DNA of 64,000 bases from Gemmatimonadota bacterium (GCA_039933845.1 JBDTNH010000003.1:2888-66887); one strand, 5' to 3'; numbered from the stretch's first letter, positions 2,853 to 47,838 are shown. A program made the numbers and translations. Notes: a model not told the origin generated them from the sequence alone.

Positions 2853-4103
2853 GTGACGGTGTTCGACCTCATCGCCGCACTGACCACAATCGCCGCTGTC
2901 CTTGCGTGGATCAACTACCGCTTCGTCAAGTTGCCGATGACCATCGGCCTGATGGTGCTCTCGCTGGTCAGCTCGATCCTGATCGTCATCGCCGGCCGTC
3001 TCGGTGTGATGCCGATCGACGGGCTCACCAAGTTCGTGCAGGCGATCAACTTCGACGACACGGTCCTCAACGGCATGCTTGGTGCCCTCCTGTTCGCGGG
3101 CGCACTGCATCTCGACAGCGCCAAGTTGATGAAGTACCGCGGCCTGATCCTGACGCTTGCCACGCTCAGCGTCCTGATGACCACGGCCGTGGTCGGCATC
3201 GGCGGCTGGTATCTCTTCACCGCGCTCGGCCTCACCATTCCGCTCTCGTGGATGCTGGTCTTCGGGGCCCTGATCGCACCCACCGATCCGATCGCGGTCG
3301 GCGCGATCCTCCGGCGCGTCGGTGTACCCAAGGAACTCGAGACCACGATCACCGGCGAGTCGCTCTTCAACGACGGCGTCGGCGTCGTGCTGTTCATCCT
3401 GCTGATCGAACTGCTTGGCGGCGAAGCGATCACCGCCGGCGTGGTCGCCAAACTCATCGCCGTCGAGGTGGTCGGCGGCCTGGCCTACGGCGCAGTCCTG
3501 GGCTATGTCGTCTTCCGGATGCTCCGCGCGGTCGACAACTACTCGGTGGAAATCCTGCTCACGCTTGCCCTGGTCACCGGCGGCTACGCATTTGCGCATG
3601 TGTTCCATGTCTCGGGGCCGCTCGCGATGGTGGTCGCCGGATTGATCATCGGCACACGCGGTCGACAGGACGCGATGTCCGAGACCACGCGGCATCGACT
3701 CGATCAGTTCTGGGAACTGGTCGACGAATTCCTGAATGCCGTCCTGTTCGTGTTGATCGGGCTCGAGGTCGTGATCCTCGACGTGAGCGACAAGGTGCCG
3801 ATCGCGGCGGTGCTCGCGATTCCGCTGGTGCTGGTGGCCCGCTACATCTCCGTGGTGATCCCGGTATCGGTGTTGCCGAGCGGACGGAGCCTGCCGCGTG
3901 GCGCGGCGGCGATTCTCACCTGGAGTGGTCTCCGGGGCGGCATCTCGGTGGCGCTCGCGCTGTCGCTGCCCGCGAGTCTCTACCGTGACAAGCTGATCGC
4001 GATCACCTATGTGATCGTCTGCTTCTCGATCATCGTGCAGGGGCTGACGGTGGGGAAGGTGACGGCGAGGATCTTGGCGAGAAGCGAGAAGCGAGAAGCG
4101 TGA
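2853..4103 (+). CDS. nhaP: Na+/H+ antiporter, CPA1 (NhaP) family
   Basis: APTDPIAV, GESLFNDG and GLRGGISVALA motifs; multi-TM. Confidence 0.92.
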   Translation: MTVFDLIAALTTIAAVLAWINYRFVKLPMTIGLMVLSLVSSILIVIAGRLGVMPIDGLTKFVQAINFDDTVLNGMLGALLFAGALHLDSAKLMKYRGLILTLATLSVLMTTAVVGIGGWYLFTALGLTIPLSWMLVFGALIAPTDPIAVGAILRRVGVPKELETTITGESLFNDGVGVVLFILLIELLGGEAITAGVVAKLIAVEVVGGLAYGAVLGYVVFRMLRAVDNYSVEILLTLALVTGGYAFAHVFHVSGPLAMVVAGLIIGTRGRQDAMSETTRHRLDQFWELVDEFLNAVLFVLIGLEVVILDVSDKVPIAAVLAIPLVLVARYISVVIPVSVLPSGRSLPRGAAAILTWSGLRGGISVALALSLPASLYRDKLIAITYVIVCFSIIVQGLTVGKVTARILARSEKREA

Positions 4104-4116
4104 CGCGAGAAGCGAG
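4078..4116 (+). repeat. Heptamer tandem array overlapping nhaP stop
   Basis: cgagaagcgagaagcgagaagcgtgacgcgagaagcgag. Confidence 0.9.
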
Positions 4117-4152
4117 GCCGAGCCGCGGCTGTCAGGTCGCGGTTTGGTGCGC
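4117..4152 (+). repeat. REP-like hairpin, family B
   Basis: GCCGAGCCGCGGCTGTCAGGTCGCGGTTTGGTGCGC. Confidence 0.8.
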
Positions 4153-4295
4153 CGAACACTGACCTGTCACGCCGAACGTAGTGACGCGAGCGGCATATCG
4201 TAGTGGCGGAGTTGCCGGCGACGCTTCGCACAGCCTCAACGCCCATGCACTAGCTTTCGCACTGTCCCCATCTCCCCACCAAGAGGCACCACACC

Positions 4296-4736
4296 ATGTC
4301 CGATGCCGCTCCGCAGTCCGCCGCCGGGTACACCCGCTGGCGCCCACCGTATCACTTCTTTGTGGGACCGATCCTGTTGCTCTACTTCGGGACCACGGTC
4401 TACCACCTGCGGCACGGGCTCAACTGGGGCAACGTGCTCGCGGTCCTGCTGGCGGCCGCGTTGATCGTATTCTACTTCCAGGCGCGCTTGATGGTGCTCT
4501 CGGTGCAGGACCGGGTGATCCGTCTCGAGGAGCGGCTCCGGTTGGCGCGGTTGCTGCCGGCGAGCATGCACGGCCGAATCGACGAGTTCACGGTCGAGCA
4601 GCTGGTGGGGATGCGGTTCGCGTCTGACGGTGAGTTGCCGGCGCTGGCCGAGCGGGTCCTGAGCGAGGGGATCAACGACCGGAAGAAGATCGTGGCGATG
4701 ATCACGACCTGGCGACCGGACCACCAGCGGGCATGA
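4296..4736 (+). CDS. Small membrane protein, DUF6526-like
   Basis: Two TM segments; VQDRVIRLEERLRL, MRFASDGEL, WRPDHQRA; RBS-like gagg upstream. Confidence 0.75.
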   Translation: MSDAAPQSAAGYTRWRPPYHFFVGPILLLYFGTTVYHLRHGLNWGNVLAVLLAAALIVFYFQARLMVLSVQDRVIRLEERLRLARLLPASMHGRIDEFTVEQLVGMRFASDGELPALAERVLSEGINDRKKIVAMITTWRPDHQRA

Positions 4737-4896
4737 GTCGGGGGCACGGCTTCCTCCCCACCGCGTTCGGTGCATGCGTCGGCGGGAGAGTACCAATGCT
4801 CGGTGCGTGGCCGACGTCGTGGTGGGGTTGCCGGGGGCATCAAGGTCAACGCCATACATGTAAACGCGGTAGCGCACTGAGAAATGCGATCTGCCC

Positions 4897-4925: not shown

Positions 4926-4929
4926 TCTG

Positions 4930-18383: not shown

Positions 18384-18433
18384 TGAGATCCTGTGAGGGC
18401 GGTAGGGCGGGAAAGGTATCACGCTCCGCGACT

Positions 18434-18470
18434 CGCCAACCAAACCGCGGCTTGACAGCCGCGGCTAGGC
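18434..18470 (-). repeat. REP-like hairpin, family B
   Basis: Minus strand GCCTAGCCGCGGCTGTCAAGCCGCGGTTTGGTTGGCG. Confidence 0.8.
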
Positions 18471-18491: not shown

Positions 18492-19946
18492 ATGCCCACC
18501 ACCAAGCGCTCCTTCCTCTCGGCCCTCACCTGCCCCACCATGGGTTGGTACGAACAACACGCCGGCGGCGGCACACCAGCCGTCGGCCTGCAGTGGCGGT
18601 TCTTCGAGGGCAACCTGGTGCAGCGCCTGGCGCGCGAATGGCTGGGCGAGGGCACACTATTGCCGTCGGGCCAAACCGCAATGGCGCTCGAGCACAGTCG
18701 TGCCGCCCTCGACGACCCAACCAACACTCTTCTCTTCGAGGCCTCGTTCGCGGCCGATGGCGCGGTGGCGCGCGCCGACGCCCTCCGTCGCACCGCCGAC
18801 GGCTGGGAGTTGATCGAGATCAAGGCCGGCAGCAGTCGCGACGATACACCGCTCAAGCCCGACCACATCGACGATGTCGCCTATACGTGGGCCGTGCTGA
18901 CGGCCGCCGGCGTGCCGCTCACCGCCGCGTCGCTGGTGATGATCAATGCCGACCATGTCGAGGGGAGCGGCAGCGAACCGCTCACCATTCGCGACGCGAC
19001 GGCAGAGATCACCGAACGCGCCGCACTCTTCCGCGACAACCTCGCCGACGTCGCGCAGCAACTCGCCGGTGATCGTCCCGCGCCGACCCTGATCTACGAC
19101 TGCCGCCACTGCGATCACTTCGGTGTCGACTGCATGGGGGTCGGGATCCCCGATCCGCTCTTCGACCTGCCGGGCCTCCGCGTGCAACGCTGGGACAAGC
19201 TGATCTCATTCGGCGAGCGGATCTCCGAGCTGCCCGTCGACGCCGACCTGACCGACAACCAGGCCGCGTATGCCGCCGTGCTGAGGTCCGGCACCCCCGC
19301 CATCGACAGCGACGTCCTGAAACATCTCGACGACATCGCCTACCCGATCCACTACCTCGACTTCGAGGCGATCCAGCCCGCGCTGCCGTGGTTTGCCGGC
19401 ACCTCACCGTACCAGAAGCATCCGTTCCAGTACTCACTCCACGTGCGGCCCGCGGCCAATACACCACTCGAGCACCACGAGTACCTCGCACTCGCCCTCG
19501 GCGACTGGCGCCGCGAGTTCGCCGAGTCGCTGCTCACCGCGCTCGGCGAGCGCGGATCGATCCTCGTTTACTCGAGCTACGAGTCACAGGTCCTGAACCA
19601 GTTGGCCGCGTGGTTTCCCGACCTCGAGTCGCGCATCGACGCAGTGCGGAAGCGACTGTTCGACCTGGAGAAGGTCGTCAAGAAGGGCTACCTGCACCCC
19701 GCCTTTCGCGGCAAGAGCTCGATCAAGAAGGTGCTGCCAGTCGTCGCACCAGACTTGTCGTACGATGGACTCGATGTCGCCGGTGGCGAGGATGCGATGG
19801 CGGTGTTCGGGTTCATGTATCTGGGCGAGTACCCCACCCCGGAGCATGCGCGCCACCGCGCCGCGCTGCTCGAGTACTGCAAGCTCGACACGGCGGCGAT
19901 GGTGCGGGTGCACGAGGCGCTTGTAGGCGTGAAGCGAGAGGCGTGA
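18492..19946 (+). CDS. DUF2779 protein (PD-(D/E)XK-like N-terminus plus RNase H-like C-terminus)
   Basis: ARADAL...LIEIK; CRHC...C; YLDFE, PFQYSLH, SIKKVLP, YCKLDT. Confidence 0.85.
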   Translation: MPTTKRSFLSALTCPTMGWYEQHAGGGTPAVGLQWRFFEGNLVQRLAREWLGEGTLLPSGQTAMALEHSRAALDDPTNTLLFEASFAADGAVARADALRRTADGWELIEIKAGSSRDDTPLKPDHIDDVAYTWAVLTAAGVPLTAASLVMINADHVEGSGSEPLTIRDATAEITERAALFRDNLADVAQQLAGDRPAPTLIYDCRHCDHFGVDCMGVGIPDPLFDLPGLRVQRWDKLISFGERISELPVDADLTDNQAAYAAVLRSGTPAIDSDVLKHLDDIAYPIHYLDFEAIQPALPWFAGTSPYQKHPFQYSLHVRPAANTPLEHHEYLALALGDWRREFAESLLTALGERGSILVYSSYESQVLNQLAAWFPDLESRIDAVRKRLFDLEKVVKKGYLHPAFRGKSSIKKVLPVVAPDLSYDGLDVAGGEDAMAVFGFMYLGEYPTPEHARHRAALLEYCKLDTAAMVRVHEALVGVKREA

Positions 19947-19990
19947 AGCGAGAAGCGAGGGGTGCTCACTTCTCACTTCTCGCACCTCGC
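19928..19990. repeat. Inverted pair of degenerate heptamer arrays
   Basis: GTGAAGC/GAGAAGC run overlapping the stop, then CTCACTT/CTCGCAC run. Confidence 0.75.
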
Positions 19991-20020
19991 GTTATCGTTG
20001 ACCTTCCATCCGGAGGTCCC

Positions 20021-20890: not shown

Positions 20891-20897
20891 AGAGCAC

Positions 20898-20930
20898 TCG
20901 AGCTCGTGGCTAAAGCCACGGCTCGGCCGC
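20898..20930 (-). repeat. REP-like hairpin, family B
   Basis: Minus strand GCGGCCGAGCCGTGGCTTTAGCCACGAGCTCGA. Confidence 0.75.
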
Positions 20931-21032
20931 CTCGTTTCTCATTTCTCGTTTCTCGCTTCTCGCTTCTCGCTTCTCGCTTCTCGCTTCTCGCTTCTCGCTT
21001 CTCGTTTCTCGTTTCTCGCTTCTCGCTTCTCA
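20929..21032 (-). repeat. Heptamer tandem array (~14 units)
   Basis: TCTCGCT/TCTCGTT units. Confidence 0.95.
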
Positions 21033-21728: not shown

Positions 21729-21735
21729 CGCTTGC

Positions 21736-28525: not shown

Positions 28526-28527
28526 CC

Positions 28528-28544: not shown

Positions 28545-28648
28545 TGTCACGCTGAGCGTAGCGAAGCGACGACGCTGGGCACTCCAGTGTACCTGAGCGG
28601 GCTCAGCAACTTGACACGATCTACCGCTTCGCTTCGCTCAGCGTGACA
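28545..28648. repeat. Palindromic element with 24-bp terminal inverted repeats
   Basis: TGTCACGCTGAGCG(T/A)AGCGAAGCG arms, 23/24 match. Confidence 0.9.
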
Positions 28649-28662
28649 GTGGTTGAGTGCCA

Positions 28663-28730
28663 CTCGCTTCTCGCTTCTCGCATCACGTTTCTCGCTTCTC
28701 GCTTCTCGTTTCTCGCTTCTCGCTTCTCGT
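28663..28730 (-). repeat. Heptamer tandem array
   Basis: TCTCGCT units abutting the tricorn stop. Confidence 0.92.
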
Positions 28731-31985: not shown

Positions 31986-32070
31986 GGGATGGCCTCGACT
32001 ATGGGGAATCCAACAAGATACGGTCATCTTCCCACTTCGTGCTGTGTCCGCCCCACTTCCGGAGCCCCCC

Positions 32071-33174
32071 ATGCGCTACGCACTCGTCCTGCTTCTGCTC
32101 ACCCCCGCCGTCCACGCGGCCCAGTCCCCGAACCCTGCGCACGTGCAGCACGTCGTCGATTCGCTCGCACATGACTTCGTTTCATCAGGCGGCGCACCCA
32201 GTCTCGCGATCGGTGTGACCATGCGTGGTGCACCCGTGGCGATGATCACGGCGGGAATGGCCGACCTCGAGAATAGCGTCCCGGCCGGCACAGAGGGAGT
32301 GTACCGCATCGGCAGCGTCACCAAACAATTCACGTCGGTGGCGGTCCTCCAACTCGTCGAGCACGACTCGCTCTCGCTCGGCGATAGCCTCGCGCAGTAT
32401 GTCGACAGTCTGCCACTGGCCTGGCAGGGCGTCACGATCCAGCAACTCCTCAACCACACCAGCGGCATTCCGAGCTACACTGACCTTGGGGAACCCTGGT
32501 TCAAGCGCTGGGGTGAAGAGATGTCACCAGCCACCGTGGCCTCGCTGACGTTCGACAAGCCCATGGACTTTGCGCCGGGCACGAGTTGGAGCTACAACAA
32601 CACCGGCTACGCGTTGCTGGGGATGGTGATCGAGCGCGTGACCGGGCGGAGCTGGGGCGGGGAGATGCAGGAACGATTCTTTGGACCGCTGGGGATGACC
32701 GCATCGCTCGAATGCTTGACCGGGCCGCTGATCCCGCATCGTGTGCACGGTTATGAGCCAGTCAAAGGGGGGGGATGGCGGAACACCGACTTCCTCGACA
32801 TGTCGCAACCCTACTCCGCTGGAGCGCTCTGTTCGACCCTGACCGACATGGCCACATGGAACGACGCGCTGCACGGCGGCCGTCTGCTTTCGCCCGACTC
32901 CTACCGGCAGATGACCACGCCGATCGGCGCAGCGGCAGACTCGAGCTATGGCTTCGGGATCGGGCCGGATTCACTCGTCGGCCATGCCACGATCGCTCAC
33001 GGTGGCGGGATCCCCGGCTTCATCTCCCAGAATGTCTGGGTCCCGGACCTGCACACCTCGATCACCATCTTCGCGAGCTCCGGCGAAGCCCGGCTCGGTC
33101 GACTGCTCCGGCAGGTGGCCCGCGCCGCGTTCGGTGTGCCGCTCGACGACACGCCGACCGTGCAGTCCCCCTAG
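32071..33174 (+). CDS. Serine hydrolase, beta-lactamase/S12 family
   Basis: SVTK, LLNHTSG, YNN, HGG; signal peptide. Confidence 0.92.
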   Translation: MRYALVLLLLTPAVHAAQSPNPAHVQHVVDSLAHDFVSSGGAPSLAIGVTMRGAPVAMITAGMADLENSVPAGTEGVYRIGSVTKQFTSVAVLQLVEHDSLSLGDSLAQYVDSLPLAWQGVTIQQLLNHTSGIPSYTDLGEPWFKRWGEEMSPATVASLTFDKPMDFAPGTSWSYNNTGYALLGMVIERVTGRSWGGEMQERFFGPLGMTASLECLTGPLIPHRVHGYEPVKGGGWRNTDFLDMSQPYSAGALCSTLTDMATWNDALHGGRLLSPDSYRQMTTPIGAAADSSYGFGIGPDSLVGHATIAHGGGIPGFISQNVWVPDLHTSITIFASSGEARLGRLLRQVARAAFGVPLDDTPTVQSP

Positions 33175-33187
33175 GCGCGAACAAGCT

Positions 33188-33222
33188 GCCGAGCCGCGGG
33201 CGTTAGCCCGCGGTTGGGTTCG
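33188..33222 (+). repeat. REP-like hairpin, family B
   Basis: GCCGAGCCGCGGGCGTTAGCCCGCGGTTGGGTTCG. Confidence 0.85.
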
Positions 33223-33274
33223 TACATCGGGGAGCAATCTCTAGGCGCGCGACTGCCCGACCTGATGGTCGGGC

Positions 33275-34861
33275 CTAAAGCAGCCGCGCCACCAACCAAT
33301 CGGCCAGCGCCCCCAACACCTCGGGAGACACCTTGTTGTCGGTGAGCGTGCTGTAGCCACTCGGCAACCCGCTCGGGTCGGGCAAGAACAGGTGGTTGAG
33401 GCCGGGGAAGACACGAGTCGTCACGTCCTTATTACCCGCGGCCTTGAACACCTTCTCCAACGCGGGTGCCTGATCCGGGGTGATCTGATGATCCGTGCCA
33501 CCCTGGAGAATCAGGATCGGCGTCGCGGTCACCCGGCGAGCCGTCGCGAGCGGATCGTGACGAATGAAGAACTCGAGCCACGGACTGAGGCCGGCCAATG
33601 AGTCGGTGGCGATCCTCGCCACCTGGTACATCGAATCACGAGCTGTCGCGGCGATGCTCGTGTCGCCATCGATCGCCTGCTTCTGCTGAAACCGCAGGAT
33701 CTGGGCGCCGGTCTCCGCGGGACCGGCCATCAACACCGCTCCCCGGAGCCTCGCATCGGTTGCGGCAACCATCGGCGCGATCAGGCCGCCCTCGCTATGG
33801 CCCACCAGCGCGAGCCGATCGCCATCGATCACCGGTTGCGCCCGGAGCCAAGCGAGAGCGGCGCGAATGTCGTCGGCATAGTCGGCACTGGTGCCGAGCG
33901 CGCCACCCGAGGCACCGACCATCCGATCATCGAGCCGAAGCACCGCGATCCCTCGACGACCGAGGGTGTCCGCGACCTGACGGAACAGCCGGTACCCTCC
34001 CGCCACCGGGATGTACTCATCGCGGTCCTGCTGACCACTGCCGGTGATCGTCACCACCGCGGGCACCGGCCCCGTTGCACTACTCGGCATGGTGAGCGTG
34101 CCGCCGAGGATGACGCCGCCGGGAGTCTTCAGGGTGACCTCGGTCGCCGTGTACGGCGCACCAGGCGGGGCGGAATAGTCCGGTCGGCCGAGTTCGAGCT
34201 GCGCGGCCGCGGCGGCGCTGACCCGCTCGATCGCGATGCCCGCCGAGGGAATGGACCCGCCAAGAATGCGACCGGAGGCGTCGACACGAAGCCGTTGCAG
34301 TTGTCCGGCCACGGTGAGCGTCATCGAATCGGCGCCCAGGGGTCGGATCGCGACAGTGAGGGTCATCCCGCCACTGAGTGACCACCCGGGAATGTCGACC
34401 GAGTCACCATGGGTACGCGCATACCGAGTGAACAGCTCGGTGAGGGCGAACGAATTGTTCAGGAGCGGGAGTGCGCCGGCAGTGGTCTGGTAGCCGCGGT
34501 GCTGGCCAGCGACATCGATGAACGCACTGTCGCCCCGCAGCGTGGCCCGTACCTCCTGCAAGGGTGCGGCGTCGGCGGATGCGCCCAGTGGGAAGATCCG
34601 GAACGTCATCGCATGGATCAGCTGATCGCCACCCTGCACGGCGTGATACTCGAGCCGAGGCTGGCCACGAACTGAGACGGTGCCCGAGAGGGAATCTCCC
34701 GTCTGGGTGAATCGCTCGACCACCACCGTGTCGGCGCCGAGTTGCATGATGAAGCCGCCGCGAGCGGCGGGGGCCTGACCGGTGAGCGGCAGGGCCCATA
34801 GCATCGTCAGGAAGGCAACAGGGTAGCGGAGCAATGCGACCTCACGGAACAGGATGTCCAA
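33275..34861 (-). CDS. Secreted alpha/beta hydrolase
   Basis: ITGSG, GHSEG, GGTD, GLNHLF; start uncertain. Confidence 0.88.
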   Translation of the reverse strand: MDILFREVALLRYPVAFLTMLWALPLTGQAPAARGGFIMQLGADTVVVERFTQTGDSLSGTVSVRGQPRLEYHAVQGGDQLIHAMTFRIFPLGASADAAPLQEVRATLRGDSAFIDVAGQHRGYQTTAGALPLLNNSFALTELFTRYARTHGDSVDIPGWSLSGGMTLTVAIRPLGADSMTLTVAGQLQRLRVDASGRILGGSIPSAGIAIERVSAAAAAQLELGRPDYSAPPGAPYTATEVTLKTPGGVILGGTLTMPSSATGPVPAVVTITGSGQQDRDEYIPVAGGYRLFRQVADTLGRRGIAVLRLDDRMVGASGGALGTSADYADDIRAALAWLRAQPVIDGDRLALVGHSEGGLIAPMVAATDARLRGAVLMAGPAETGAQILRFQQKQAIDGDTSIAATARDSMYQVARIATDSLAGLSPWLEFFIRHDPLATARRVTATPILILQGGTDHQITPDQAPALEKVFKAAGNKDVTTRVFPGLNHLFLPDPSGLPSGYSTLTDNKVSPEVLGALADWLVARLL

Positions 34862-34929
34862 AGATAGGGTCGAGAACGGGAACGAGCCCCCACTGAACGG
34901 TTTGAGGCTAGATTTGGCTCTTCCTTCAT

Positions 34930-35043
34930 CGTTTCTCGTTTCTCGTTTCTCGCTTCTCGCTTCTCGCTTCTCGTTTCTCGCTTCTCGTTTCTCGTTTCTC
35001 GCTTCTCGCTTCTCGCTTCTCGCTTCTCGCCTTCTCGCTTTCT
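34930..35043 (-). repeat. Heptamer tandem array (~16 units)
   Basis: Mixed TCTCGTT/TCTCGCT units ending at the GGAG RBS. Confidence 0.95.
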
Positions 35044-35052
35044 GGAGTCACC

Positions 35053-36096
35053 ATGTCCACCGCCGCCTTCGCCGCCTTCGATGCCACTACACCGCTCAAG
35101 GCCCACAGCATCGACCGCCGTGAGCCGGGGCCGACCGATATCGCCATCGAGATCCTCTACTGCGGCGTCTGTCATTCGGACCTGCACCTCGCCCGAAGCG
35201 AGTGGTTCCCGGGTGCCTACCCGATGGTACCGGGTCACGAGATCGTCGGACGGGTGACCCAGATCGGGATGGATGTGCAGAACCACAAGGTCGGCGACAT
35301 GGTCGGTGTCGGTTGCCTGGTCGATTCGTGCGGGGAGTGCGCCAGTTGTCGCGAGCAGCTCGAGAATTACTGCAGCGGTGGGTTCACGATGACCTATGGG
35401 TCGCCAGATCCCATCAGCGGCGGCTTCACCTACGGCGGCTACTCCAAGGCGATCGTGGTCGACGAGCACTTCGTCCTGCGCGTCCCCGAGAACCTCGATC
35501 CGGCTGGTGCAGCGCCGCTTCTCTGCGCCGGCATCACCACCTATTCGCCGCTCAAGCACTGGAAGGTCGGCCCCGGCAGCAAGGTCGGCGTCGTCGGACT
35601 CGGTGGGCTCGGCCATATGGCGATCCAGCTCGCCGAGGCGATGGGCGCGGAAGTGACGGTGTTCACCACCTCGAAGGGGAAGGTCGACGACGCCAAGGAA
35701 CTCGGTGCCACGCACGTGGTGATCTCGAAGGACGAGGATCAGATGACGGCTGTTGCCGGCACGCTCGACCTGATCATCAACACCGTCGCCGCGGCGCATG
35801 ATCTCGATCAGTACATGAATGCGCTGACGCGCGATGGCACGATGGTGCTGGTCGGCGTGCCGCCGACCCCACACACCGGTCCATCGGTGATGCCGATGGT
35901 CTTCGGGCGGAAGTCGGTCGCCGGCTCGCTGATCGGTGGCCTGCAGGAGACCCAGGAGATGCTCGATTTCTGCGGGATGCACGGCATCACCGCCGACATC
36001 GAGATGATCCGCATGGACGAGATCAACGAAGCGTACGAGCGGATGCTCAAGGGCGACGTCAAGTACCGATTTGTGATCGACATGGCAACGATGTAG
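35053..36096 (+). CDS. Zn-dependent NADP alcohol dehydrogenase (cinnamyl ADH/YahK-like)
   Basis: CGVCHSD, PGHEIVG, structural Zn cysteines, GLGGLG, YRFVID. Confidence 0.95.
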   Translation: MSTAAFAAFDATTPLKAHSIDRREPGPTDIAIEILYCGVCHSDLHLARSEWFPGAYPMVPGHEIVGRVTQIGMDVQNHKVGDMVGVGCLVDSCGECASCREQLENYCSGGFTMTYGSPDPISGGFTYGGYSKAIVVDEHFVLRVPENLDPAGAAPLLCAGITTYSPLKHWKVGPGSKVGVVGLGGLGHMAIQLAEAMGAEVTVFTTSKGKVDDAKELGATHVVISKDEDQMTAVAGTLDLIINTVAAAHDLDQYMNALTRDGTMVLVGVPPTPHTGPSVMPMVFGRKSVAGSLIGGLQETQEMLDFCGMHGITADIEMIRMDEINEAYERMLKGDVKYRFVIDMATM

Positions 36097-36182
36097 CCGC
36101 GGAGGTCACGCCGCGGGATGTCCGCGCATTCGCAAGATCCAGCCGCGGCCGTCAGGCCGCGGGATGCCCGCGCATTCGCAAG
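36095..36182 (+). repeat. Tandem pair of family-B-like hairpins (46-bp period)
   Basis: AGCCGCGG-NN-GTCA-NG-CCGCGG-GATG(T/C)CCGCGCATTCGCAAG x2. Confidence 0.85.
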
Positions 36183-36297
36183 CAATTCTGATTTCCGCCA
36201 CGACCCCGCACCTGACGGAATTGGCTCCCGCGGCGTAGCTTCTGCGACCAACCTGGCTTCATCCTTCGGTTCGTCGTCAATCAGGAGCGTCTGCGTG

Positions 36298-39200
36298 GTG
36301 CGCCACCCAACTCCCGCCGCCCTTTCCATGGTCTTGGCCTTGGCGCTGCTCCCCGGCCTGCTCACGGCCCAGGGCGCCGCTCCCCGGCTCTTCACCGACC
36401 CAGATGTGAGCGCCGATCAGATCTGTTTCAGTTACGCGGGCGACATCTGGCTGGTGCCCCGGTCCGGCGGCGATGCCCATCGGCTGACGGCCACCCCGGG
36501 AAATGAAGGTCGCTGCCGGTTCTCACCAGATGGCCGCTTGGTCGGCTACACCTCTGGTCGCGAGAACAACGCCGATGTCTATGTCGTCGGGGTCGACGGT
36601 GGCACCCCGACCAGGTTGACGTGGCATCCCGCGACCGACATGGTGAGCGACTGGACGCCCGATGGCAGACTGCTTTTCGCGTCGCTACGCGACGGAGTGA
36701 CGCCGGGCGGGATTCCGTTCCAGTTCTATACCCAGGGTGTGCAGGAGGTTGCGGCGACACCGCTCCGCCTTCAGGGTGCGCTCGATGCCTCATATTCGAG
36801 CGACGGGTCACGATTGGCGTACACCGAATTCATGGCAGCGAACGATATCTGGAAGCGATATCGCGGCGGTCGCACCCCCGGGATCTGGCTCGCGACGTTG
36901 TCGAACGCCGCGATTGAAAAGGTACCGCACGCTGGTTCCAGCGACGGCTACCCGATGTGGGTCGGCGACACGGTCTTCTTCCTCTCCGATCGCGACGGGC
37001 CGACGACGCTCTACGGCTACAACCTGAGCACCAAGTCGGTCGGACGGCGAATCGACAACACGAGCCTCGACATCAAGTCGGCCCAGGCGGGCCCCGGAGC
37101 GATCATCTACGACCAGTTTGGCTCGATCCAGCTCTATGACATCGCCAGCGGCCGCACCTCACCTGTGGACATCCGGATCGACGGCGAACTCACGGCCACA
37201 CTTCCCAATTGGGCCGGGGTCGGCAGCCAACTCGGCTCTGCAGCACTCTCTCCCACGGGTCAGCGCGCCGCATTCGAGGCGCACGGCGAGATCATCACGG
37301 TGCCCGCCGACAAGGGTGATCCGCGCAACATCACCAACACCACGGGAACGATGGAACGGTCGCCGGCGTGGTCACCCGATGGCCAGACAGTCGCCTACTT
37401 CACCGAGGCCGGTGGTCAGTACCAGCTCGCACTGCAGTCGCAGGACGGCAGGGGCACGCCGCGCAGGATTTCGCTTGGTGGTGGCGACAACTTCGACTAC
37501 ACGCCGACCTGGTCGCCCGACGCCAAGTCGATCGCCTTCACCAATTCGCGAGGCGAGATCTGGTTGGTCGACCTGGCATCGGGGAAGCTGACCAAGGTCG
37601 ATGCCAACCCGTTCGGTTCGTTCGGCCAGGCGGGAACATCGCTGTCCTGGTCGAAGAATTCGCGCTGGTTGGCATACTCGCGCGCGATCAGCAATCGATT
37701 GCCGGCGGTGTTCGTCTTCGACCGCACCGATGGCAGGATCCACCAGATGACCGACGGGATGAGCAGTGCCTCGAATCCGGCGTTCGATGCGAGTGGGAAG
37801 TACCTCTACTTCCTGGCCAGCACCGACGCCGGACCGGCCACCGACTTCAGCATGACGACGTTCGACCACCCGGTGACGTCGACGCTCTATGCGATCGTGC
37901 TCGCGCGGGATTCTGCCTCCCCGATGGCGCCCGAGAGCGACGAGGAACCGGCCAGGCCCGACACCACGACGGCAAAGGCAAAGGCAAACGCGAAGCCACC
38001 CACACCGGTCGACAGCACGGCGGTGACGGTCGACTTCGATGGGATCGACCAGCGTGCGGTCGCGTTGCCGGTCGACCCGAAGAACTTTGTGGCCATCGTC
38101 GCCGGCAAGGCGGGCACAGTGCTCCTGGCGGAGGCGCCACTGGTGCCGGTCGATCTGCAGGACGGCGGGGAGGGCGTGACGCTGCACTCGTTCGACCTGA
38201 AGGAGCGCAAGACGACCGAGTTGCTCGGCGACGTGACCAGCTTCGACGTGTCGCGCGATGGTGGCAAGCTGCTCTACCACAAGGACAACAGCTGGGCAAT
38301 CGCGGATCTGACCAAGCCCATCAAGCCGGGCGATGGTGCGCTCGCGACGGCCGCGATTCAGGTGAAGACCGACCCGCGTGCCGAGTGGGCGCAGATGTAC
38401 CATGAGGCCTTTCGATTCCAGCGGGCGTTCTTCTACGATCCCGACTTTCACGGCCTTGACCTCGACGCCACCGAGCGCTTCTACGAACGGTATCTCCCCG
38501 GGCTCGGCAGCCGTGCCGATCTCGATCAACTGTTCAGGGAGGCATTCGGCAATCTGACCGTGGGCCACCTGTTCGTGAGTGGCCCGCCGGGAGGCGGCGA
38601 TGGCACCCCGGCCAATGGCGTGCTGGGGGCCGACTACACCGCGAGCAACGGCCATTGGCGCTTCGCGAAGATTTACGCCGGCGAGAGCTGGAATCCGCAA
38701 CTCTCAGCGCCGCTGACTCAGCCTGGTGTCAACGTGATGGCGGGCGAATACCTGTTGGCGGTGAACGGCGCGTCGCTCACGACGGCCACCAATGTCAACG
38801 CCGCACTGGCCGGCACCGCCGGCAAGCAGGTGATGTTGCGCGTGGGTCCGAATGCCGATGGCACCGATGCGCGTGACGTCACGGTAGTGCCGCTCGCGAG
38901 TGAGGGGATGCTGCGTCACCTGGCGTGGATCGACCACAATCGCCGTGTGGTGGATTCACTCTCGGGTGGCAAGTTGGCGTATCTCTACATTCCCAACACC
39001 GCCAACGAGGGATACACTCGGTTCAACCGCTACTTCTTCGCCCAGCAGGACAAGCAGGGTGCAGTCGTCGACGAGCGCTACAACCAAGGTGGCAACATTG
39101 CCGACTACATGGTCTACTACCTGATCAAGAATGCGCCGTTCAATTATGCGACCCAACGGTACGGCGAGGACGTGCCGATCCCGGCGGGAGCGATCTACGG

Positions 39201-39597
39201 CCCGAAGGCGATGTTGATCAACGAGTGGGCAGGCTCCGGCGGCGACGAGCTGCCATGGCTGTTCCGGCGCTTCAAGGCAGGCCCGCTGATCGGCACCCGC
39301 ACCTGGGGTGGACTGGTCGGGATCGGCGGCTACCCCAGCCTGATGGATGGCGGCTCGGTGACGGCTCCACGCGTCTCGCTCTGGTCGTACGAGGGGAAGT
39401 ACGAGGTGGAAAATCAGGGGGTCGCGCCCGACATTGAAGTGACCGCCGACCCGGCGGCATGGCGACAGGGTCGCGATGTGCAACTCGAGCATGCGGTCAA
39501 GGTGGTCATGGATTCGCTGGCACAGCACCCATTCGTCGCGCCATCGCGACCGCCGTTTCCGACGTGGGCGAAGGGGCGTACGCCGGGAGAGAAGTGA
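36298..39597 (+). CDS. Tricorn protease, S41 family
   Basis: Propellers, PDZ, VVDERYNQGG, AGSGGD, IGTRTWGG, GVAPDIEV; start at 36298 or 36328. Confidence 0.93.
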   Translation: MRHPTPAALSMVLALALLPGLLTAQGAAPRLFTDPDVSADQICFSYAGDIWLVPRSGGDAHRLTATPGNEGRCRFSPDGRLVGYTSGRENNADVYVVGVDGGTPTRLTWHPATDMVSDWTPDGRLLFASLRDGVTPGGIPFQFYTQGVQEVAATPLRLQGALDASYSSDGSRLAYTEFMAANDIWKRYRGGRTPGIWLATLSNAAIEKVPHAGSSDGYPMWVGDTVFFLSDRDGPTTLYGYNLSTKSVGRRIDNTSLDIKSAQAGPGAIIYDQFGSIQLYDIASGRTSPVDIRIDGELTATLPNWAGVGSQLGSAALSPTGQRAAFEAHGEIITVPADKGDPRNITNTTGTMERSPAWSPDGQTVAYFTEAGGQYQLALQSQDGRGTPRRISLGGGDNFDYTPTWSPDAKSIAFTNSRGEIWLVDLASGKLTKVDANPFGSFGQAGTSLSWSKNSRWLAYSRAISNRLPAVFVFDRTDGRIHQMTDGMSSASNPAFDASGKYLYFLASTDAGPATDFSMTTFDHPVTSTLYAIVLARDSASPMAPESDEEPARPDTTTAKAKANAKPPTPVDSTAVTVDFDGIDQRAVALPVDPKNFVAIVAGKAGTVLLAEAPLVPVDLQDGGEGVTLHSFDLKERKTTELLGDVTSFDVSRDGGKLLYHKDNSWAIADLTKPIKPGDGALATAAIQVKTDPRAEWAQMYHEAFRFQRAFFYDPDFHGLDLDATERFYERYLPGLGSRADLDQLFREAFGNLTVGHLFVSGPPGGGDGTPANGVLGADYTASNGHWRFAKIYAGESWNPQLSAPLTQPGVNVMAGEYLLAVNGASLTTATNVNAALAGTAGKQVMLRVGPNADGTDARDVTVVPLASEGMLRHLAWIDHNRRVVDSLSGGKLAYLYIPNTANEGYTRFNRYFFAQQDKQGAVVDERYNQGGNIADYMVYYLIKNAPFNYATQRYGEDVPIPAGAIYGPKAMLINEWAGSGGDELPWLFRRFKAGPLIGTRTWGGLVGIGGYPSLMDGGSVTAPRVSLWSYEGKYEVENQGVAPDIEVTADPAAWRQGRDVQLEHAVKVVMDSLAQHPFVAPSRPPFPTWAKGRTPGEK

Positions 39598-39665
39598 GAC
39601 GTGAGAAGTGAGAGGTGAGAGCCATTCCTCAGCTGTCGTTTCTCGTTTCTCGTTTCTCGTTTTCT
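39588..39665. repeat. Inverted pair of heptamer arrays
   Basis: GAGAAGT-type run 39588-39621; TTTCTCG run 39637-39665. Confidence 0.85.
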
Positions 39666-39701
39666 GCGGTATCTTGAGGTTCTCTTCCACCCCGGATCGC
39701 C

Positions 39702-42892
<3,191 letters not shown>

Positions 42893-42893
<1 letters not shown>

Positions 42894-45800
42894 TGGCCGA
42901 CCTACGGAGCGACCTGCAGGCGCACCTCGGCGACGCCTTCCGGATCGAGCGCGAGCTCGGTGGCGGTGGCATGTCACGGGTGTTCATGGCCTCCGAGGTC
43001 CGACTCAATCGCCGGGTCGCGATCAAGGTCCTGAGTCCGGAGCTCGCCCAGGGGCTCAACGCCGAGCGCTTCGAACGTGAGATCCTCCTCTCGGCGTCGC
43101 TGCAGCAAGCCAACATCGTGCCGGTACTGGCCGCGGGCGATGTCGCGGGACTGCCTTACTTCACGATGCCGTTCGTCGATGGTGAGTCGCTCCGGAGTCG
43201 CCTGACCGGGACGGGGCTGCCCATTGACGATGTAGTCACAATTCTGCGCGACGTCAGCAAGGCGCTCGCATACGCGCATGCGCGCGGGATCGTCCACCGC
43301 GACATCAAGCCCGACAATGTGCTGCTGAGTGGTGGCACCGCGGTGGTGACCGACTTCGGGATCGCGAAAGCGCTGGCCGCGAGCAAGGTGGGCGGTACCG
43401 TACCAGGGGCGACGCTCACGCAGGTCGGCACCTCGATCGGCACGCCGCCCTACATGGCCCCCGAACAGATCGCCGGCGACCCCAATGTCGATCATCGCGT
43501 CGATCTCTACGCGTTGGGCTGCATGGCATTCGAGATGCTGACCGGGCGGACACCGTTCGGGGATTTGGCGCCACAGCGGATACTCGCAGCACACTTGAGC
43601 CAAGCGCCAACGGCGGTTGAGTCACTGCGGCCCGATTGTCCGCCGACGCTGGCGCTGCTGGTTGCGCGTCTGCTGGAGAAGGATCCCGCCGATCGGATCG
43701 CCAGTGCCGCAGAAGTGGTGCAGGTGCTGGGTGCGGTCGGCACGGCGTCGTCGGAGTCGGGCACGCTGTCACCGCGTGGTCGCCTGGTTCGCTCGCTGGT
43801 CGGGTGGGGCGTGGCGACGATGGTTGTCTGGATCGTCGCGAAGGCGGCAGTGGTCGGGATCGGGTTGCCGGAATGGACCGTGCGCGGTGCCGTGGGTGTG
43901 ATGCTGGTGGGACTTCCGGTGCTGCTCGCGACCGGCTGGGCCAAGTGGATGGCGCGGCGCGCATCGCACGCCACGCCGACGCTCACGCCCGGCGGTTCGC
44001 ACCTGCCGTTGCCGTCGGGCACGATGACCAACATCGCGATCAAGGCGAATCGGCACCTGTCGTTCCGGAAGGCGCAGCGGGGCGGGATGTACGCGATGGC
44101 GGCGTTCGTGTTGCTGATCGCGGCGTTCATGATCACGCGGTCGATGGGGATCGGGCCGGCAGCCTCACTGTTTGCCACGGGCACGCTCACGTCGCAGGAC
44201 AAGATCGTGCTCGCCGACTTCGTCACTGACGACGCAAATTACGTCCCGATCCTGGCCGAGGCGGTCCGATCGGCAATGAGCCAATCGAATGCGATCAAGT
44301 TGGTCACGCCGACCGACGTGGCAGGGACGCTGGTCCAGATGCGGCGATCGATCGACACCCCGGTCACCGATTCTGTCGCTCGCGAGGTGGCACAGCGACG
44401 TGCGGCGAAGGCGATCCTTGGCGGACGGATGGTCGCGGCCGGAACTGGCTTCCTGGTACAACTGGAGCTCAGGAACGTGCAGGATGGTGCGATGCTGGCG
44501 TCGTTCCAGGGGACCGCCGATGCGCCGACCGACCTGCTCAAGGTGGTCGACGAGTTGACGCGCAAGCTGCGTAGCAAGATCGGCGAGTCGCTCCGGAACG
44601 TGGCCAACACCGTGCCGCTCGAGCGTGCCACGACCACGTCGCTCGAGGCGCTCCGACTCTACAGCGAAGCGACACGCGCCAATGACATCGAGGGCGATTA
44701 CGACAAGGGGATCATTCTCAATCGACGTGCGCTGACCCTTGATTCGACCTTCGCCCTCGCCTGGCGGAAGCTGGCGATCACGATCAGCAACGGTGGTGGC
44801 TCTGTCGCGGCAGCCGATTCGGCCCTCGAGATGGCGGTGCGCTACGCCGACAAGCTGCCGCCATTCGAGCGGCTGATGGTCCGGGCCACCTACCACGACA
44901 TGCACCAGACGGGATGGGATCGCGCCGCGGCAATCGAGGAGTATCGCCAGGCCTATCGCCTCGATTCGACCAACGCCGTGATCAGCAACAACTTGTCACT
45001 GAATCTGGACCAGGCGGGCCTGCGCGATTCGGCACTCTACTACACTCGGGTGCAAGCCGGCGTCCAACCCGGGGTGGTCGGGGTGATGAGAGTAGCGCTT
45101 GCCCTCGACGCAGCGGGGCGGCAGGACGAGGCCCGGGCACTGGTCGACTCGGTCCGCACTGCCTTGGGTGCCGATTCGATGTCCGCGACGTTCGCATTGT
45201 ACGAGAGTTTAATCGCGATGGACCATGGCAATCTCAGCCGGGCTGCCCAATTGAGCGCGCGGCTGCAATCGGCGACCGGGGTCTCGGAAAGGTTCGCCGG
45301 ACTCGGGTTCGGTGCCGCGACGGCCCTGATCGCCGGGCAGCCGGCCGAGGCAGCGGCATTGCTCGCCCGGAGAGATTCATTGCTTGGCACGCTCGACTAT
45401 TCCAAGGTGATCCCGGGACTCGGTCTCGCGTCTGGAAAGATTGTCCTCGGGACTGACCCGGCCGGCGGCGTGACGCAACTCGATCAGGTCGTGACTGGGA
45501 ACGCGTGGCGGCATGCCGCTCCCGCCGATCGGCCCTGGTTCGATGTCATCGAGCTCTATGCCCGGGGTGGCTCGCCCGACAAGGCGGCGGAGCTCCTGGC
45601 GGCGTTTCGCAAGGAATGGCCTGCGGCCGCGACAAGTGACGCAATGATTTCCCGGATCGCGATGGCCGAGGGCGAGATCGCACTGGCACGTGGCGAGGCG
45701 ACGGGTGCGGTGGAAAAGTTCCGTATCGCGACGACACGCATCGCCCAGAACCGCACCATCTGTCCGCCGTGTGCCCTGGAGTCGATGGCCCGCGCGTTTG

Positions 45801-46090
45801 ATGCGGCTCACCAAGCCGACTCGGCGCGGACATATCTCGAGCGCTACGAGGCGATCCCTGCCGGCTCTCGAAACTCGGTCTATACCGGTGCGTCGGCCGA
45901 CCCGAACCGATTGGCCGCGGTCCGCAAGCGGCTCGGTCAGCTCTACGACGATGCCGGAGAGCGCACCAAGGCCATCGCCCAGTATCAGGCGTTCGTGGAT
46001 CAGTGGGCGAATGCCGAGCCCGTGCTGCAGCCGGCGGTGGCGAGTGTCAGGGCGCGGCTCAAGGAGTTGCAGGCGCAGGAAGGACGCTAG
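42893..46090 (+). CDS. Hanks-type Ser/Thr protein kinase, tandem paralog
   Basis: Same motifs and architecture as 39702-42893. Confidence 0.93.
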
Positions 46091-46186
46091 CGAGAAGCGA
46101 GAAGCGTGATGCGAGAGACGGCCGAGCCGCGGCGGTCACGCCGCGGTTTGGTTCGCAACGCACGGATCTCGTTTCTCGTTTTCTCA
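46090..46186. repeat. Heptamer array + family B hairpin (46121-46156) + inverted heptamer array
   Basis: GAGAAGC units, then GCCGAGCCGCGGCGGTCACGCCGCGGTTTGGTTCGC, then TCTCGTT units. Confidence 0.9.
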
Positions 46187-46207
46187 TCCCCCCTCGAGGA
46201 TCACCGC

Positions 46208-47050
46208 ATGTCAACGAATTTCCTGCTCAACTTCACGCCGACCGGCATGATCCCCACCAAGGCGATGACGCCCGAGGTGCCGATCCTGCCGGCAGAAATC
46301 GTCAGACAAGTCGGCGAAGCGGTGGCGCTCGGTGCCAACATGGTGCACCTGCACGCGCGCGACGCCGTGACCGGCAAGCCGACATACGAGAAGGCGGTGT
46401 ACGCCGAGATCGTGGCGGGAGTTCGCGCCCAGCATCCGGAGTTGGTGATCTGCCTGTCGACCAGTGGGCGCGATTTCCCGGGATTCGCTGAGCGCTCGGA
46501 ATGCCTCGAGCTCACCGGTGATCTCAAGCCCGACATGGGGAGCCTCACCCTCAGCTCGCTCAACTTCAACAACCAGCCCAGCATGAACGCGCCCGAGATG
46601 ATCCAGTCGCTCGCGCGCAAGATGCTGGAACTCGACATCAAACCAGAGCTCGAGGCCTTCGATCTCGGCATGATCAACTACGCGCATTACCTGATCCGGA
46701 AGGGGCTGCTGCGGCCGCCCTATTACTTCAACCTGATCCTCGGCAACATCGCCTGCGCGCAGGCGAATCTCCTGAGCCTTGGGCTGATGATCAAGGAACT
46801 GCCCGACGATTCGATCTGGTCGGTCGGCGGCATCGGCGACAGCCAGCTGAGGATGAACGCGATCGGCATCGCCGATGGTGGTGGGGTGCGAGTCGGGCTG
46901 GAGGACAACATCTGGTACGATGCAGCACGGACCCGATTGGCGAGCAATCGCGATCTCGTTGCGCGCGTGGTCGACATCGCGACGGCCATGGGGCGGACCC
47001 CATATTCGCACGGTGCTGCACGCGGATTGCTGGGACTCGCGCCTCGGTGA
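46208..47050 (+). CDS. Beta-keto acid cleavage enzyme (BKACE/DUF849, Kce-like)
   Basis: VHLHARD, KPELEAFD, VRVGLEDN. Confidence 0.9.
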   Translation: MSTNFLLNFTPTGMIPTKAMTPEVPILPAEIVRQVGEAVALGANMVHLHARDAVTGKPTYEKAVYAEIVAGVRAQHPELVICLSTSGRDFPGFAERSECLELTGDLKPDMGSLTLSSLNFNNQPSMNAPEMIQSLARKMLELDIKPELEAFDLGMINYAHYLIRKGLLRPPYYFNLILGNIACAQANLLSLGLMIKELPDDSIWSVGGIGDSQLRMNAIGIADGGGVRVGLEDNIWYDAARTRLASNRDLVARVVDIATAMGRTPYSHGAARGLLGLAPR

Positions 47051-47742
47051 GCGGCAGCGCACCGGGCATACCTCAACGCGCGCAGACATGGCTCGGTACG
47101 GTGCGGTCGCGCGGCGTACCGTTCATGATACGCGCCGCCCTCCTCCGCATCGGCATCCGCTGTTCCATCTTCTACTGGATAGAGGAACGATCACCGAGGA
47201 ATGACGGTGCGGCCATTCCGCCACTGCCCGACGGGTTCCGGGTCAGGCCCCTCACCGCTGATGAGGTGACAACCATCAGTCGCTGGGAAGCAGAGGGAGC
47301 ACCGATCGCGGGTGGGGAGATGCACCAACACCTGGCACACCACGCCAAATGCATCGGCCTCCTAAGAGGCGACGACATTGTCGGCTTCTCGTGGTACACC
47401 CTCGATCGGGTGACCAGCGGCATCTGGCCGGTGGCATTGCAACCGAATGAAGCCTACCTCTTCAACATCTACATTCGCCCGGAACTGCGTGGATTGAAAC
47501 TTGCGCCGATCCTGCGCCACCACACCTTCGGTATGCTCGCCGACCTCGGCCGGGATACCTGCTACAGCATCACGCTCGCGATCAACAAGCCGTCATGGCA
47601 GTTCAAGAAAAAACTCGGCGCCCGGAAAATGTTCACTGGGTTGCACCTCGAGCGGATCGGTCGGTGGCACCGGAGCTGGGTGATCAAGCGCGAGCAGCGA
47701 GATGGACGAACTCCGTCCGACGCGAACCACACCACGGCCTGA
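47047..47742 (+). CDS. GNAT-fold acetyltransferase-like protein
   Basis: YIRPELRGLKLA...NKPS...KKLG; GTGA overlap with upstream gene. Confidence 0.65.
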   Translation: MSGSAPGIPQRAQTWLGTVRSRGVPFMIRAALLRIGIRCSIFYWIEERSPRNDGAAIPPLPDGFRVRPLTADEVTTISRWEAEGAPIAGGEMHQHLAHHAKCIGLLRGDDIVGFSWYTLDRVTSGIWPVALQPNEAYLFNIYIRPELRGLKLAPILRHHTFGMLADLGRDTCYSITLAINKPSWQFKKKLGARKMFTGLHLERIGRWHRSWVIKREQRDGRTPSDANHTTA

Positions 47743-47838
47743 TGGCCGCGGCTCGGCCGCTTCTCGCTTCTCGCTTCTCGCTTCTCGCTTCTCGTTTCTC
47801 GCTTCTCGCTTCTCGTTTCTCGCTTCTCGCTTCTCGTT
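47721..47838 (-). repeat. Family B hairpin (47721-47760) fused to heptamer array (47759-47838)
   Basis: Minus strand (GAGAAGC)n-GGCCGAGCCGCGGCCATCAGGCCGTGGTGTGGTTCGCG. Confidence 0.92.

Follow-up and report, generated by a model that had tools for sequence, protein, structure and literature searches.

Two classes of bacterial repeats provide the background for the locus analyzed here, a 64,000-nt stretch of a Gemmatimonadota bacterium genome (GCA_039933845.1, JBDTNH010000003.1:2888-66887; referred to below as the window), in which tandem arrays of the heptamer GAGAAGC run into GC-rich hairpins, most of them members of a palindrome family that we call family B. The first class consists of REP sequences (repetitive palindromes outside genes), the hairpin-forming REP doublets known as REPINs, and the REP-associated tyrosine transposases (RAYTs), as described in the parts considered here of Bertels and Rainey 2011 (PMC3116915) and Di Nocera et al. 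2013 (PMC3733652). The second class consists of heptanucleotide repeats. In the part of Rehm et al. 2015 (PMC4692102) used here, the Xanthomonas GGGAATC repeats and the Nostoc heptanucleotide repeats are intergenic and lie near the 5' neighboring open reading frame (ORF). Each Xanthomonas genome has 70-75 convergent inverted pairs, and 83% of the repeats, whose function and origin are given as unknown, are positionally conserved between two species with differing lengths. The same paper cites a report on heptamers in Calothrix. In Beggiatoaceae, TAACTGA repeats occur in 169 direct sets and one indirect set, according to the corresponding part of PMC4679880. We found that the junctions in our window are best explained, with moderate confidence, by the juxtaposition at gene ends of two independent repeat systems, one related to each of these classes.

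All four junctions listed in a preliminary description of the window are present. In each, a period-7 GAGAAGC array is followed, 0-13 nt further on, by a GC-rich hairpin starting with GCCGAGCC, and the array lies on the coding strand of the adjoining gene, directly after the stop codon or containing it. The hairpins had all been assigned to family B. This holds for three of the four; the 3' arm of the hairpin at 20898-20930 differs from B, and this hairpin belongs to a small separate family. The same description placed inward-facing arrays around other palindromes at 63-293 and 28528-28730, and both arrangements were confirmed in the sequence. The features of the junctions and of these two pairs are as follows, with positions counted from the first nucleotide of the window and with G012 denoting a congener considered below.

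4077-4116, plus strand: heptamer array of ~5.7 units, in which the Na/H exchanger gene 2853-4103 has its final codons and its TGA stop (4101-4103)
4117-4162, plus strand: family B REP copy, hairpin and 3' tail (nhmmer E 4e-10); orthologous B in G012
20931-21031, minus strand: heptamer array of 14.4 units, beginning 7 nt past the stop of the lactonase-family gene 21039-21770 (minus strand)
20898-20930, minus strand: GC hairpin with a TTTA loop; 5' arm GCCGAGCC as in B, no match to the B profile
46089-46116, plus strand: heptamer array of 4 units, beginning at the TAG stop of the kinase gene 42893-46090
46121-46166, plus strand: family B REP copy (nhmmer E 1.9e-12) at the apex of a long stem-loop
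46167-46181, minus strand: short antisense heptamer run, pairing with the array 46089-46116
47758-47836, minus strand: heptamer array of 11.3 units, beginning 3 nt past the TAA that ends the DUF2207 gene 47839-49626 (minus strand)
47712-47757, minus strand: family B REP copy (nhmmer E 1.9e-11)
65-292, no strand assigned: inward array pair 65-122 (plus) and 245-292 (minus) around a ~120-nt palindromic repeat; 3 such repeats lie inside array pairs genome-wide
28528-28729, no strand assigned: inward array pair 28528-28544 (plus) and 28663-28729 (minus) around a ~120-nt palindromic repeat of a family found in 8 of 43 pair centers genome-wide

The exchanger gene reads into its array, and its TGA comes from a variant unit. 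The stem-loop at 46088-46186, whose base is formed by the two flanking arrays, has a predicted fold of -62.9 kcal/mol (z -7.5). Tandem Repeats Finder listed 18 period-7 arrays in the window, and a two-unit heptamer pattern (up to 1 mismatch) gave 61 matches in the window, against 0.02 expected and with none of 100 shuffles giving as many. A strain contig from run X4 (~94% identical) bridges positions 45943-47309, with array and B kept and a 25-nt insertion inside B at 46133; a similar insertion in the apex of a B hairpin occurs elsewhere in the host assembly, at C41:19173.

Arrays and family B are separable. The host assembly, G000 (2.71 Mb, 65.9% GC), was analyzed within a set of 41 genomes, one per species, made up of G000, 24 congeners, and 16 genomes of other genera. 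Copies of B were collected with a profile built from 61 strict-pattern copies and then used to search the whole assembly (nhmmer, E<=0.01). A 13-mer of the B 5' arm, tried as a probe with up to 2 mismatches, proved too loose (16 matches against 13.65 expected), and a profile search was therefore chosen. The profile found 85 copies, of which seven strong and one weak lie in the window. Arrays of 3-17 units number 151 in the assembly, 13 of them in the window by this stricter count. Among the 77 B copies with a complete 5' end, ten, including three in the window, have at least two sense heptamer units on the 5' side, and five have at least two antisense units on the 3' side; neither of the opposite arrangements occurs. 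The 67 other copies, with fewer than two units beside them, have no adjoining array.

The distribution of the two repeats among relatives is also different. A three-unit array pattern (up to 2 mismatches) matched 14 of the 24 congeners, nine of them more than 30 times and several of them hundreds of times, and gave a single match in the 16 genomes of other genera. The B pattern was confined to G000 (34 exact matches) and one congener, G012 (9 matches), and was found in none of the 16 genomes of other genera. Since 14 of 24 congeners carry arrays and one of 24 carries B, the arrays are the older of the two. Moreover, a search for RAYT genes in the array-carrying genomes G006, G009, G020, and G011 (94, 86, 79, and 61% complete, respectively) found none, which argues that the arrays do not need a RAYT.

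Synteny between G012 and the window extends over 100 kb of the G012 sequence, at ~80% DNA identity. Fourteen of the 18 window arrays have an array in the same orientation at the orthologous G012 site, with unit numbers and variant units, and often the center, being different; those lacking a counterpart are 65-122 and three around 46090-47838. Of the seven strong B copies of the window, two (4117 and 55208) are conserved in G012, one is replaced by a diverged B-like hairpin, and four are absent. The array 4077-4116 is kept in G012, so that the array-B junction at the exchanger gene is common to both species. The window copies of B with no adjoining array are the following.

18425-18466, minus strand: family B copy, found with the B profile
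33188-33233, plus strand: family B copy; the orthologous G012 site has a degenerate minus-strand array and no B
55208-55246, plus strand: family B copy, conserved in G012
63610-63651, minus strand: family B copy; the matching gene end in G012 carries a diverged hairpin resembling B

In the reverse comparison, seven of the nine G012 B loci have a B or B-like copy at the orthologous place in G000, one falls at a contig end, and one is informative. At the informative locus, L029, B lies between a plus-strand and a minus-strand array; in the G000 counterpart (C23:19400-19479) these two arrays enclose a 9-nt loop and B is missing, so that B either entered the center of the pair or was lost from it. 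The comparison of empty and filled sites proposed in the preliminary description has thus produced a single pair. Contigs from four DNA runs across 28450-48400 end at arrays, and no empty site was seen in them. The idea that array and hairpin move as one unit, put forward in the same description, finds no support for family B, since 67 of 77 B copies are without an array, most of the 151 arrays adjoin other things, and arrays stay at orthologous sites while B comes and goes.

Genome-wide, the arrays follow rules of their own. Gene calls were made with our own crude codon-usage ORF scorer, on which all gene-context counts rest. In the array's own reading direction, a gene tail lies upstream of 87 of 145 arrays; 43 of these 87 start 1-4 nt past the stop codon, and in 21 the reading frame continues into the array, in many cases by a constant plus a multiple of 7. 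Array polarity is pronounced. Among pairs of arrays with at least two units and gaps of up to 250 nt, 43 are inward, one is outward, and five are in tandem (27 inward and none outward at three or more units), an inward pair being one in which the purine-rich arm comes first on both strands. Eighteen pairs lie in convergent, 22 in co-directional, and one in divergent spacers, and pairs are held by ~13, ~5, and ~0.5%, respectively, of such spacers of at least 60 nt. The mean predicted fold of a pair is -77 kcal/mol over 133 nt. No asymmetry between sense and antisense folds was seen for pairs in the 22 co-directional spacers (13 vs 9, p 0.55), and single arrays in co-directional spacers are antisense in 21 cases and sense in 16. 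The polarity of arrays is therefore not due to transcription. Single arrays make up 85 of the 151 arrays with at least three units.

The 43 pairs have diverse centers. B occupies two of them by a strict definition, one ~100-140-nt palindromic repeat occupies eight, a ~120-nt one occupies three, and the remaining centers are small hairpins, each unique, or loops of 4-17 nt; 11 of the 43 pairs enclose 17 nt or less with no separate hairpin. Arrays of at least two units adjoin 14 of 30 ends of the first palindromic family, as compared with the ten of 77 for B, three of 41 copies of a third REP family, and one of 52 copies of a GTAG-tagged REP. Beside five repeat families, these included, all arrays read towards the element, with no antisense cases. 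Around single arrays, a strong hairpin lies within 50 nt on the 3' side in 15 of 69 cases and on the 5' side in two of 69. In the window, a 16-unit array lies in a divergent promoter region (34924-35040); it stops just upstream of a GGAG, 12 nt short of the ATG that starts the gene at 35053, and is conserved in G012, where the orthologous array has 14 units. In G006 (L013:2780-2830), a GC hairpin after the orthologous kinase gene is followed by three CTTTCAC units, so other heptamer families may exist in the genus.

The short tandemly repeated repetitive (STRR) sequences of heterocystous cyanobacteria are another heptanucleotide repeat family. Like STRR sequences and the Beggiatoaceae repeats, as far as the account of the latter considered here goes, GAGAAGC arrays consist of one tandem 7-mer at many intergenic sites and have no known generator; they differ from both in unit and host, and from the Beggiatoaceae repeats also in that inverted pairs are common. 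With the Xanthomonas heptamers, in the same part of PMC4692102, they share the tandem intergenic 7-mers, the convergent pairs, and positional conservation with length variation. In contrast, the GAGAAGC unit is GA-rich, while that of Xanthomonas is G-quadruplex-forming; the arrays begin 1-4 nt after the stop codon or include it, unlike those of Xanthomonas; and REPs are nested between the arms, an arrangement that this part of PMC4692102 does not describe. Nothing specific on the GAGAAGC 7-mer or on array-REP composites was found in the literature searched, and a search of the whole window against Rfam at gathering thresholds gave no match.

A family B copy is ~47 nt long and comprises a 14-bp stem, a tetraloop, and a short variable tail. 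A perfect 14-bp stem with a tetraloop is present in 37 of 72 full copies, the others having 1-2 unpaired positions, and the apical pairs of the hairpin show compensatory variation. Since the outer five stem pairs include G-U pairs, and do so on one strand only, the hairpin is markedly stabler on one strand (mean predicted fold -26.8 kcal/mol for the sense strand vs -18.7 for the reverse complement of the 72 full copies). In most copies the stem is followed by a T/G-rich heptamer with T at 5 of 7 positions. A simple terminator scan of 44000-58000 flagged the inner stem in one of the three B copies there, and a role of the hairpin in RNA 3'-end formation is conceivable. Three of 82 copies lie inside called genes, 33 of 76 lie between convergent genes, and in 59 of 78 a gene tail is upstream, often with 0-14 nt between stop codon and B. 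Singlets prevail: 15 of the 85 copies have another one within 150 nt, forming five direct and three inverted neighbor pairs, so that inverted doublets are not the prevailing unit. Inspection of the copies showed no end tag of the GTAG or CGTC type on B.

By its sequence, family B is a REP-type element, found for the most part just downstream of genes and in sense orientation. In common with REP-RAYT systems, as presented in the parts of PMC3116915 and PMC3733652 referred to above, it is a short imperfect palindrome with tens of copies, nearly all extragenic and some in doublets; it lies mostly downstream of genes in convergent or co-directional spacers; and it flanks a RAYT-like gene with HUH and Tyr motifs. 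It differs from the tagged super-families of that part of PMC3733652 in having no GTAG/CGTC tag, and from REPINs in that most copies are singlets. A B-like variant hairpin forms a direct doublet of period 46 between two co-directional genes at window positions 36095-36182. Tandem duplications of 18-19 nt (2-4 copies) of the B 5' arm and loop precede a complete hairpin at C9:6822, C50:12037, C15:3716, C27:9850, C69:4402, C2:21710, and C8:45164 of G000 and at L023/L044 of G012, which suggests that the sequence just 5' of the B hairpin is duplication-prone.

The strand bias of the hairpin and its proximity to stop codons raise the possibility that junctions form a functional module of the 3' untranslated region, in which the array would be a slippage-tunable spacer between the stop codon and the REP hairpin, setting the distance between ribosome and hairpin at termination or affecting RNA 3'-end formation. 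REPs close to stop codons have reportedly been connected with ribosome stalling in E. coli. The 8 kcal/mol gained by B in the transcribed sense, the 59 of 78 copies that follow a gene tail, the position of all four junction arrays between stop codon and hairpin, and the different unit numbers of different species at the same site would all be expected of such a module. The array pairs in co-directional spacers, which have no fold asymmetry, the single arrays there, which are antisense as often as sense (21 vs 16), and the arrays in divergent promoter regions, such as 34924-35040, would not, and we consider this explanation very unlikely.

The mechanistic model for RAYTs is the single-strand transposition of IS200/IS605 elements, in which an HUH/Tyr enzyme recognizes single-stranded hairpins and from which a strand- and orientation-biased distribution is expected. 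When the genome was searched with Pfam for transposases of the IS200-like Y1 type, a window ORF at 51842-52357 was matched. With this ORF as query, two more RAYT paralogues were found, so that G000 has three, each adjoining a different REP family. The features of the window gene are listed below.

51842-52357, plus strand: RAYT-like gene with conserved HUH and Tyr motifs, 36% identical to the B-linked paralogue and adjoined by its own GTAG-tagged REPs
52432-52470 and 52648-52682, no strand assigned: GTAG-tagged REPs beside this gene, with a palindrome different from B

The window RAYT is thus context and not the mobilizer of B. A 49-nt tandem repeat lies near it, at 52513-52610. The B-linked paralogue is at C53:16458-16952, with a B copy 32 nt downstream and, beyond that copy, an inverted B variant joined through a 55-nt contig-end overlap (C53/C132); the upstream side of the gene is unclear. 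Its G012 orthologue (C8), with 83% identity, shares the neighboring permease gene and is bracketed by B doublets. The third G000 paralogue (C2) is surrounded by members of the third REP family. All four RAYT proteins aligned, paralogues and orthologues together, have an unchanged HUH motif (H-x-H within MPDHxHGIL) and Tyr. The B-linked RAYT scores 52 bits (E 6e-14) against the NCBIfam model REP_Tyr_transpos, below the 80-bit cut-off of this model, and a PDB sequence search with it gave no match. The B-linked lineage is present in G000 and G012, and the next relatives in the 39 other genomes are at most 48% identical. The B family and its linked RAYT lineage therefore co-occur in the same two of 41 genomes. 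In having three RAYTs, each with its own REP family, G000 resembles Pseudomonas fluorescens SBW25, which has three groups of REPs and their RAYTs according to the REP literature cited above, to the extent considered here. Judged from these sequences, B was probably spread by its RAYT. HUH or GIY-YIG nucleases had been suggested as candidates in the preliminary description; the first suggestion is in line with the RAYT gene flanked by B, and no stand-alone GIY-YIG nuclease gene was found in G000, where the sole match is inside an 826-aa frame.

These results bear on the proposal that hairpin cleavage makes the ends to which heptamers are added, i.e., that a nick at the hairpin leaves an end that is extended by slippage or telomerase-like templating. 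Arrays that always read towards the structured element beside all five families, the excess of hairpins on the 3' side of single arrays, and the tandem duplications of the B 5' arm and loop are what such priming would produce. However, arrays abound in genomes without B, including the four in which no RAYT was found, a quarter of the inward pairs (11 of 43) have no separate hairpin to be cleaved, arrays are positionally stable across ~20% DNA divergence whatever their center, and G000 yielded no stand-alone GIY-YIG gene. We regard heptamer addition at cleaved hairpins as extremely unlikely.

According to the juxtaposition reading, the first system is a genus-wide (GAGAAGC)n simple-sequence repeat that occupies the same intergenic sites across species and changes its unit number, presumably by replication slippage, its arrays usually forming inward inverted pairs, which make up the two arms of a long palindrome enclosing whatever occupies mid-spacer. 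The second is the family B REP, which has spread to ~85 sites, probably driven by its RAYT. A B copy landing or kept at an array-bearing gene end would come to lie in the center of the array palindrome, and the loss of unconstrained spacer through bacterial deletion bias could join the stop codon tightly to the array and the array to the B 5' arm. The same end of B is met at each junction because arrays read towards the center of the spacer while B is oriented with the upstream gene, two independent rules. The preliminary description had viewed the junctions as products of an undescribed repeat-generating system; both parts belong to described classes, and this view falls away.

Several observations weigh against juxtaposition alone. 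In 19 of 77 copies the word GAGAR occurs within the 16 nt that precede B, compared to 123 of 892 for 16-nt stretches directly following stop codons (spacers of at least 40 nt) and 117 of 2349 for random intergenic 16-mers. Relative to the post-stop background the odds ratio is 2.05 (p=0.017), and this approximately two-fold excess makes some affinity of B for arrays possible. An array and B share an intergenic region in ten cases against 5.2 expected when all spacers are counted (p 0.035) and against 7.7 expected for spacers of at least 60 nt (p 0.42). The association between B and arrays is therefore real but weak, and the genome-wide count of junctions envisaged in the preliminary description departs from chance only mildly, with ten of 77 copies involved.

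Affinity of this kind would follow if B, mobilized by its RAYT, integrated preferentially at the inner ends of arrays, which would serve as landing pads; an inverted pair folded into a hairpin, for example, may expose its loop as an accessible single-stranded target. In addition to the two-fold enrichment, the filled site has B exactly between both arms, B is never inside an array (none of 77 copies has two or more sense units on the 3' side), and in eight of the ten junction copies one or more antisense units lie 3' of B as well. REPs inside palindromic targets are reported for three other species in the part of PMC3733652 considered, though the palindromic site that sometimes holds B is built of tandem heptamers, unlike those targets. 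Yet 67 of 77 copies have no array, co-occurrence per region is not significant once spacer length is controlled, and the two other REP families adjoin arrays even more rarely (1/52 and 3/41). A logo of the 24 nt 5' of B revealed no heptamer leader and only a weak GCG. No clear target motif or duplication was present in the 5' flank, where GCG, GCT, GCC, or GCA is found in 28 of 66 copies, and B differs from IS200/IS605 elements in that no conserved 4-5-nt target was found 5' of it. Preferential insertion at array ends, another proposal of the preliminary description, is weakly supported by the enrichment and one filled/empty pair, and we consider it unlikely.

A second point concerns sequences flanking B. 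Identical 9-nt flanks, consisting of a heptamer-like unit and 2-4 nt, precede B at non-orthologous loci (four variants, two loci each), and recurring flanks of this kind would result from co-mobilization. A third comes from another congener, G010, in which a 34-nt palindrome centered on AGATCT lies between arrays of 3-5 units, mostly in spacers of convergent genes. Near-identical array-palindrome-array composites occupy at least nine G010 spacers. The core-only pattern gave 43 matches, read as 16 loci plus scattered one-mismatch matches; heptamers lie beside the core in 16 of 16 loci and were confirmed on both sides in nine. Obligate array-core composites therefore exist in the genus. The G010 palindrome differs from the REP beside the RAYT genes of that genome (L038, L049).

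Both points would be accounted for by a composite mobile element, in which the array, the hairpin, and in some cases the inverted array are copied whole to new gene ends, and the 43:1 inward polarity is that expected of terminal inverted repeats. For B, however, the association is that of a minority (10/77), 85 of 151 arrays are single, and no target-site duplication was identified at the sites read. With respect to the marks of composites of the miniature inverted-repeat transposable element (MITE) type, centers in G000 are heterogeneous, and the G010 core is constant. Furthermore, conserved arrays have different centers in two comparisons, that of G000 with G012 and that of G010 with G000 (C19, C45). 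Of the G000 spacers orthologous to the G010 core loci, C19 and C45 have array pairs around other centers, C194 has an array at the end of its contig, C89 combines an array with a different hairpin, C2 has a REP doublet and remnants of single units, C53/C132 has the RAYT-B cassette, and C20, C73, C18, and C64 have no repeat. Because arrays stay and centers differ, replacement of cores within a standing scaffold fits better than the arrival of whole composites, and we judge whole-composite transposition improbable.

Two loci show genes as well as hairpins between arrays. Only 3 nt, and no repeat, lie between the kinase and DUF2207 genes of G012 (L012:1480-1510). At 46090-47839 of the window, array-B-array, the genes BKACE and GNAT, and an inverted B with an array stand between the two; the G012 BKACE-GNAT pair is on another contig, behind a two-unit heptamer remnant (L017). 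At the second locus, the window cytochrome c gene 20021-20890 and the TTTA-loop hairpin lie between a short and a long minus-strand array (19927-21031). In G012 (C13:114020-114180), a plus-strand array adjoins a single minus-strand array and the cytochrome c gene is missing, which may reflect either insertion into an array or deletion between two direct arrays. In five more congeners the best matches to this locus are at most 40% identical, and their loci are therefore not comparable.

Considered together, the position of these genes between array remnants relative to G012, the G010 core found in array pairs at 16 of 16 loci, and the presence of B in some pair centers of G000 and G012 would be consistent with inverted arrays being a genus-wide scaffold of homology arms or landing pads at gene ends, where cores, REPs, and genes are exchanged by recombination or targeted insertion. 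We think it quite unlikely that this is the origin of the junctions; if it were, they would be the footprints of an undescribed site-specific exchange system.

Three further points count against the juxtaposition reading. No mechanism explains the origin of one 7-mer at ~150 sites, the rule that the purine-rich arm is 5', or the contact with stop codons. G000 is in 198 contigs and 88% complete, and 16 of the 151 arrays lie within 50 nt of a contig end, so array-hairpin junctions are undercounted. Finally, the crudeness of the gene calls is a weakness of the context counts. Juxtaposition of two independent systems nevertheless remains the explanation that we favor.

According to this reading, what appeared to be a new repeat-generating machine splits into two tractable parts. 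One is a REP family with an identifiable RAYT outside Proteobacteria, and the three RAYT/REP pairs in a small genome make a test bed for RAYT specificity. The other is a heptamer system whose behavior is now documented with respect to purine-arm-first polarity, stop-codon contact, and positional stability across species. Since 16 arrays lie so close to contig ends, arrays probably add to breaks in metagenome assemblies, and because they can lengthen or shorten reading frames, they matter for annotation. The puzzle posed by the arrays is common to the Xanthomonas and cyanobacterial heptamers, and the existence of congeners with and without arrays allows it to be approached by presence/absence genetics.

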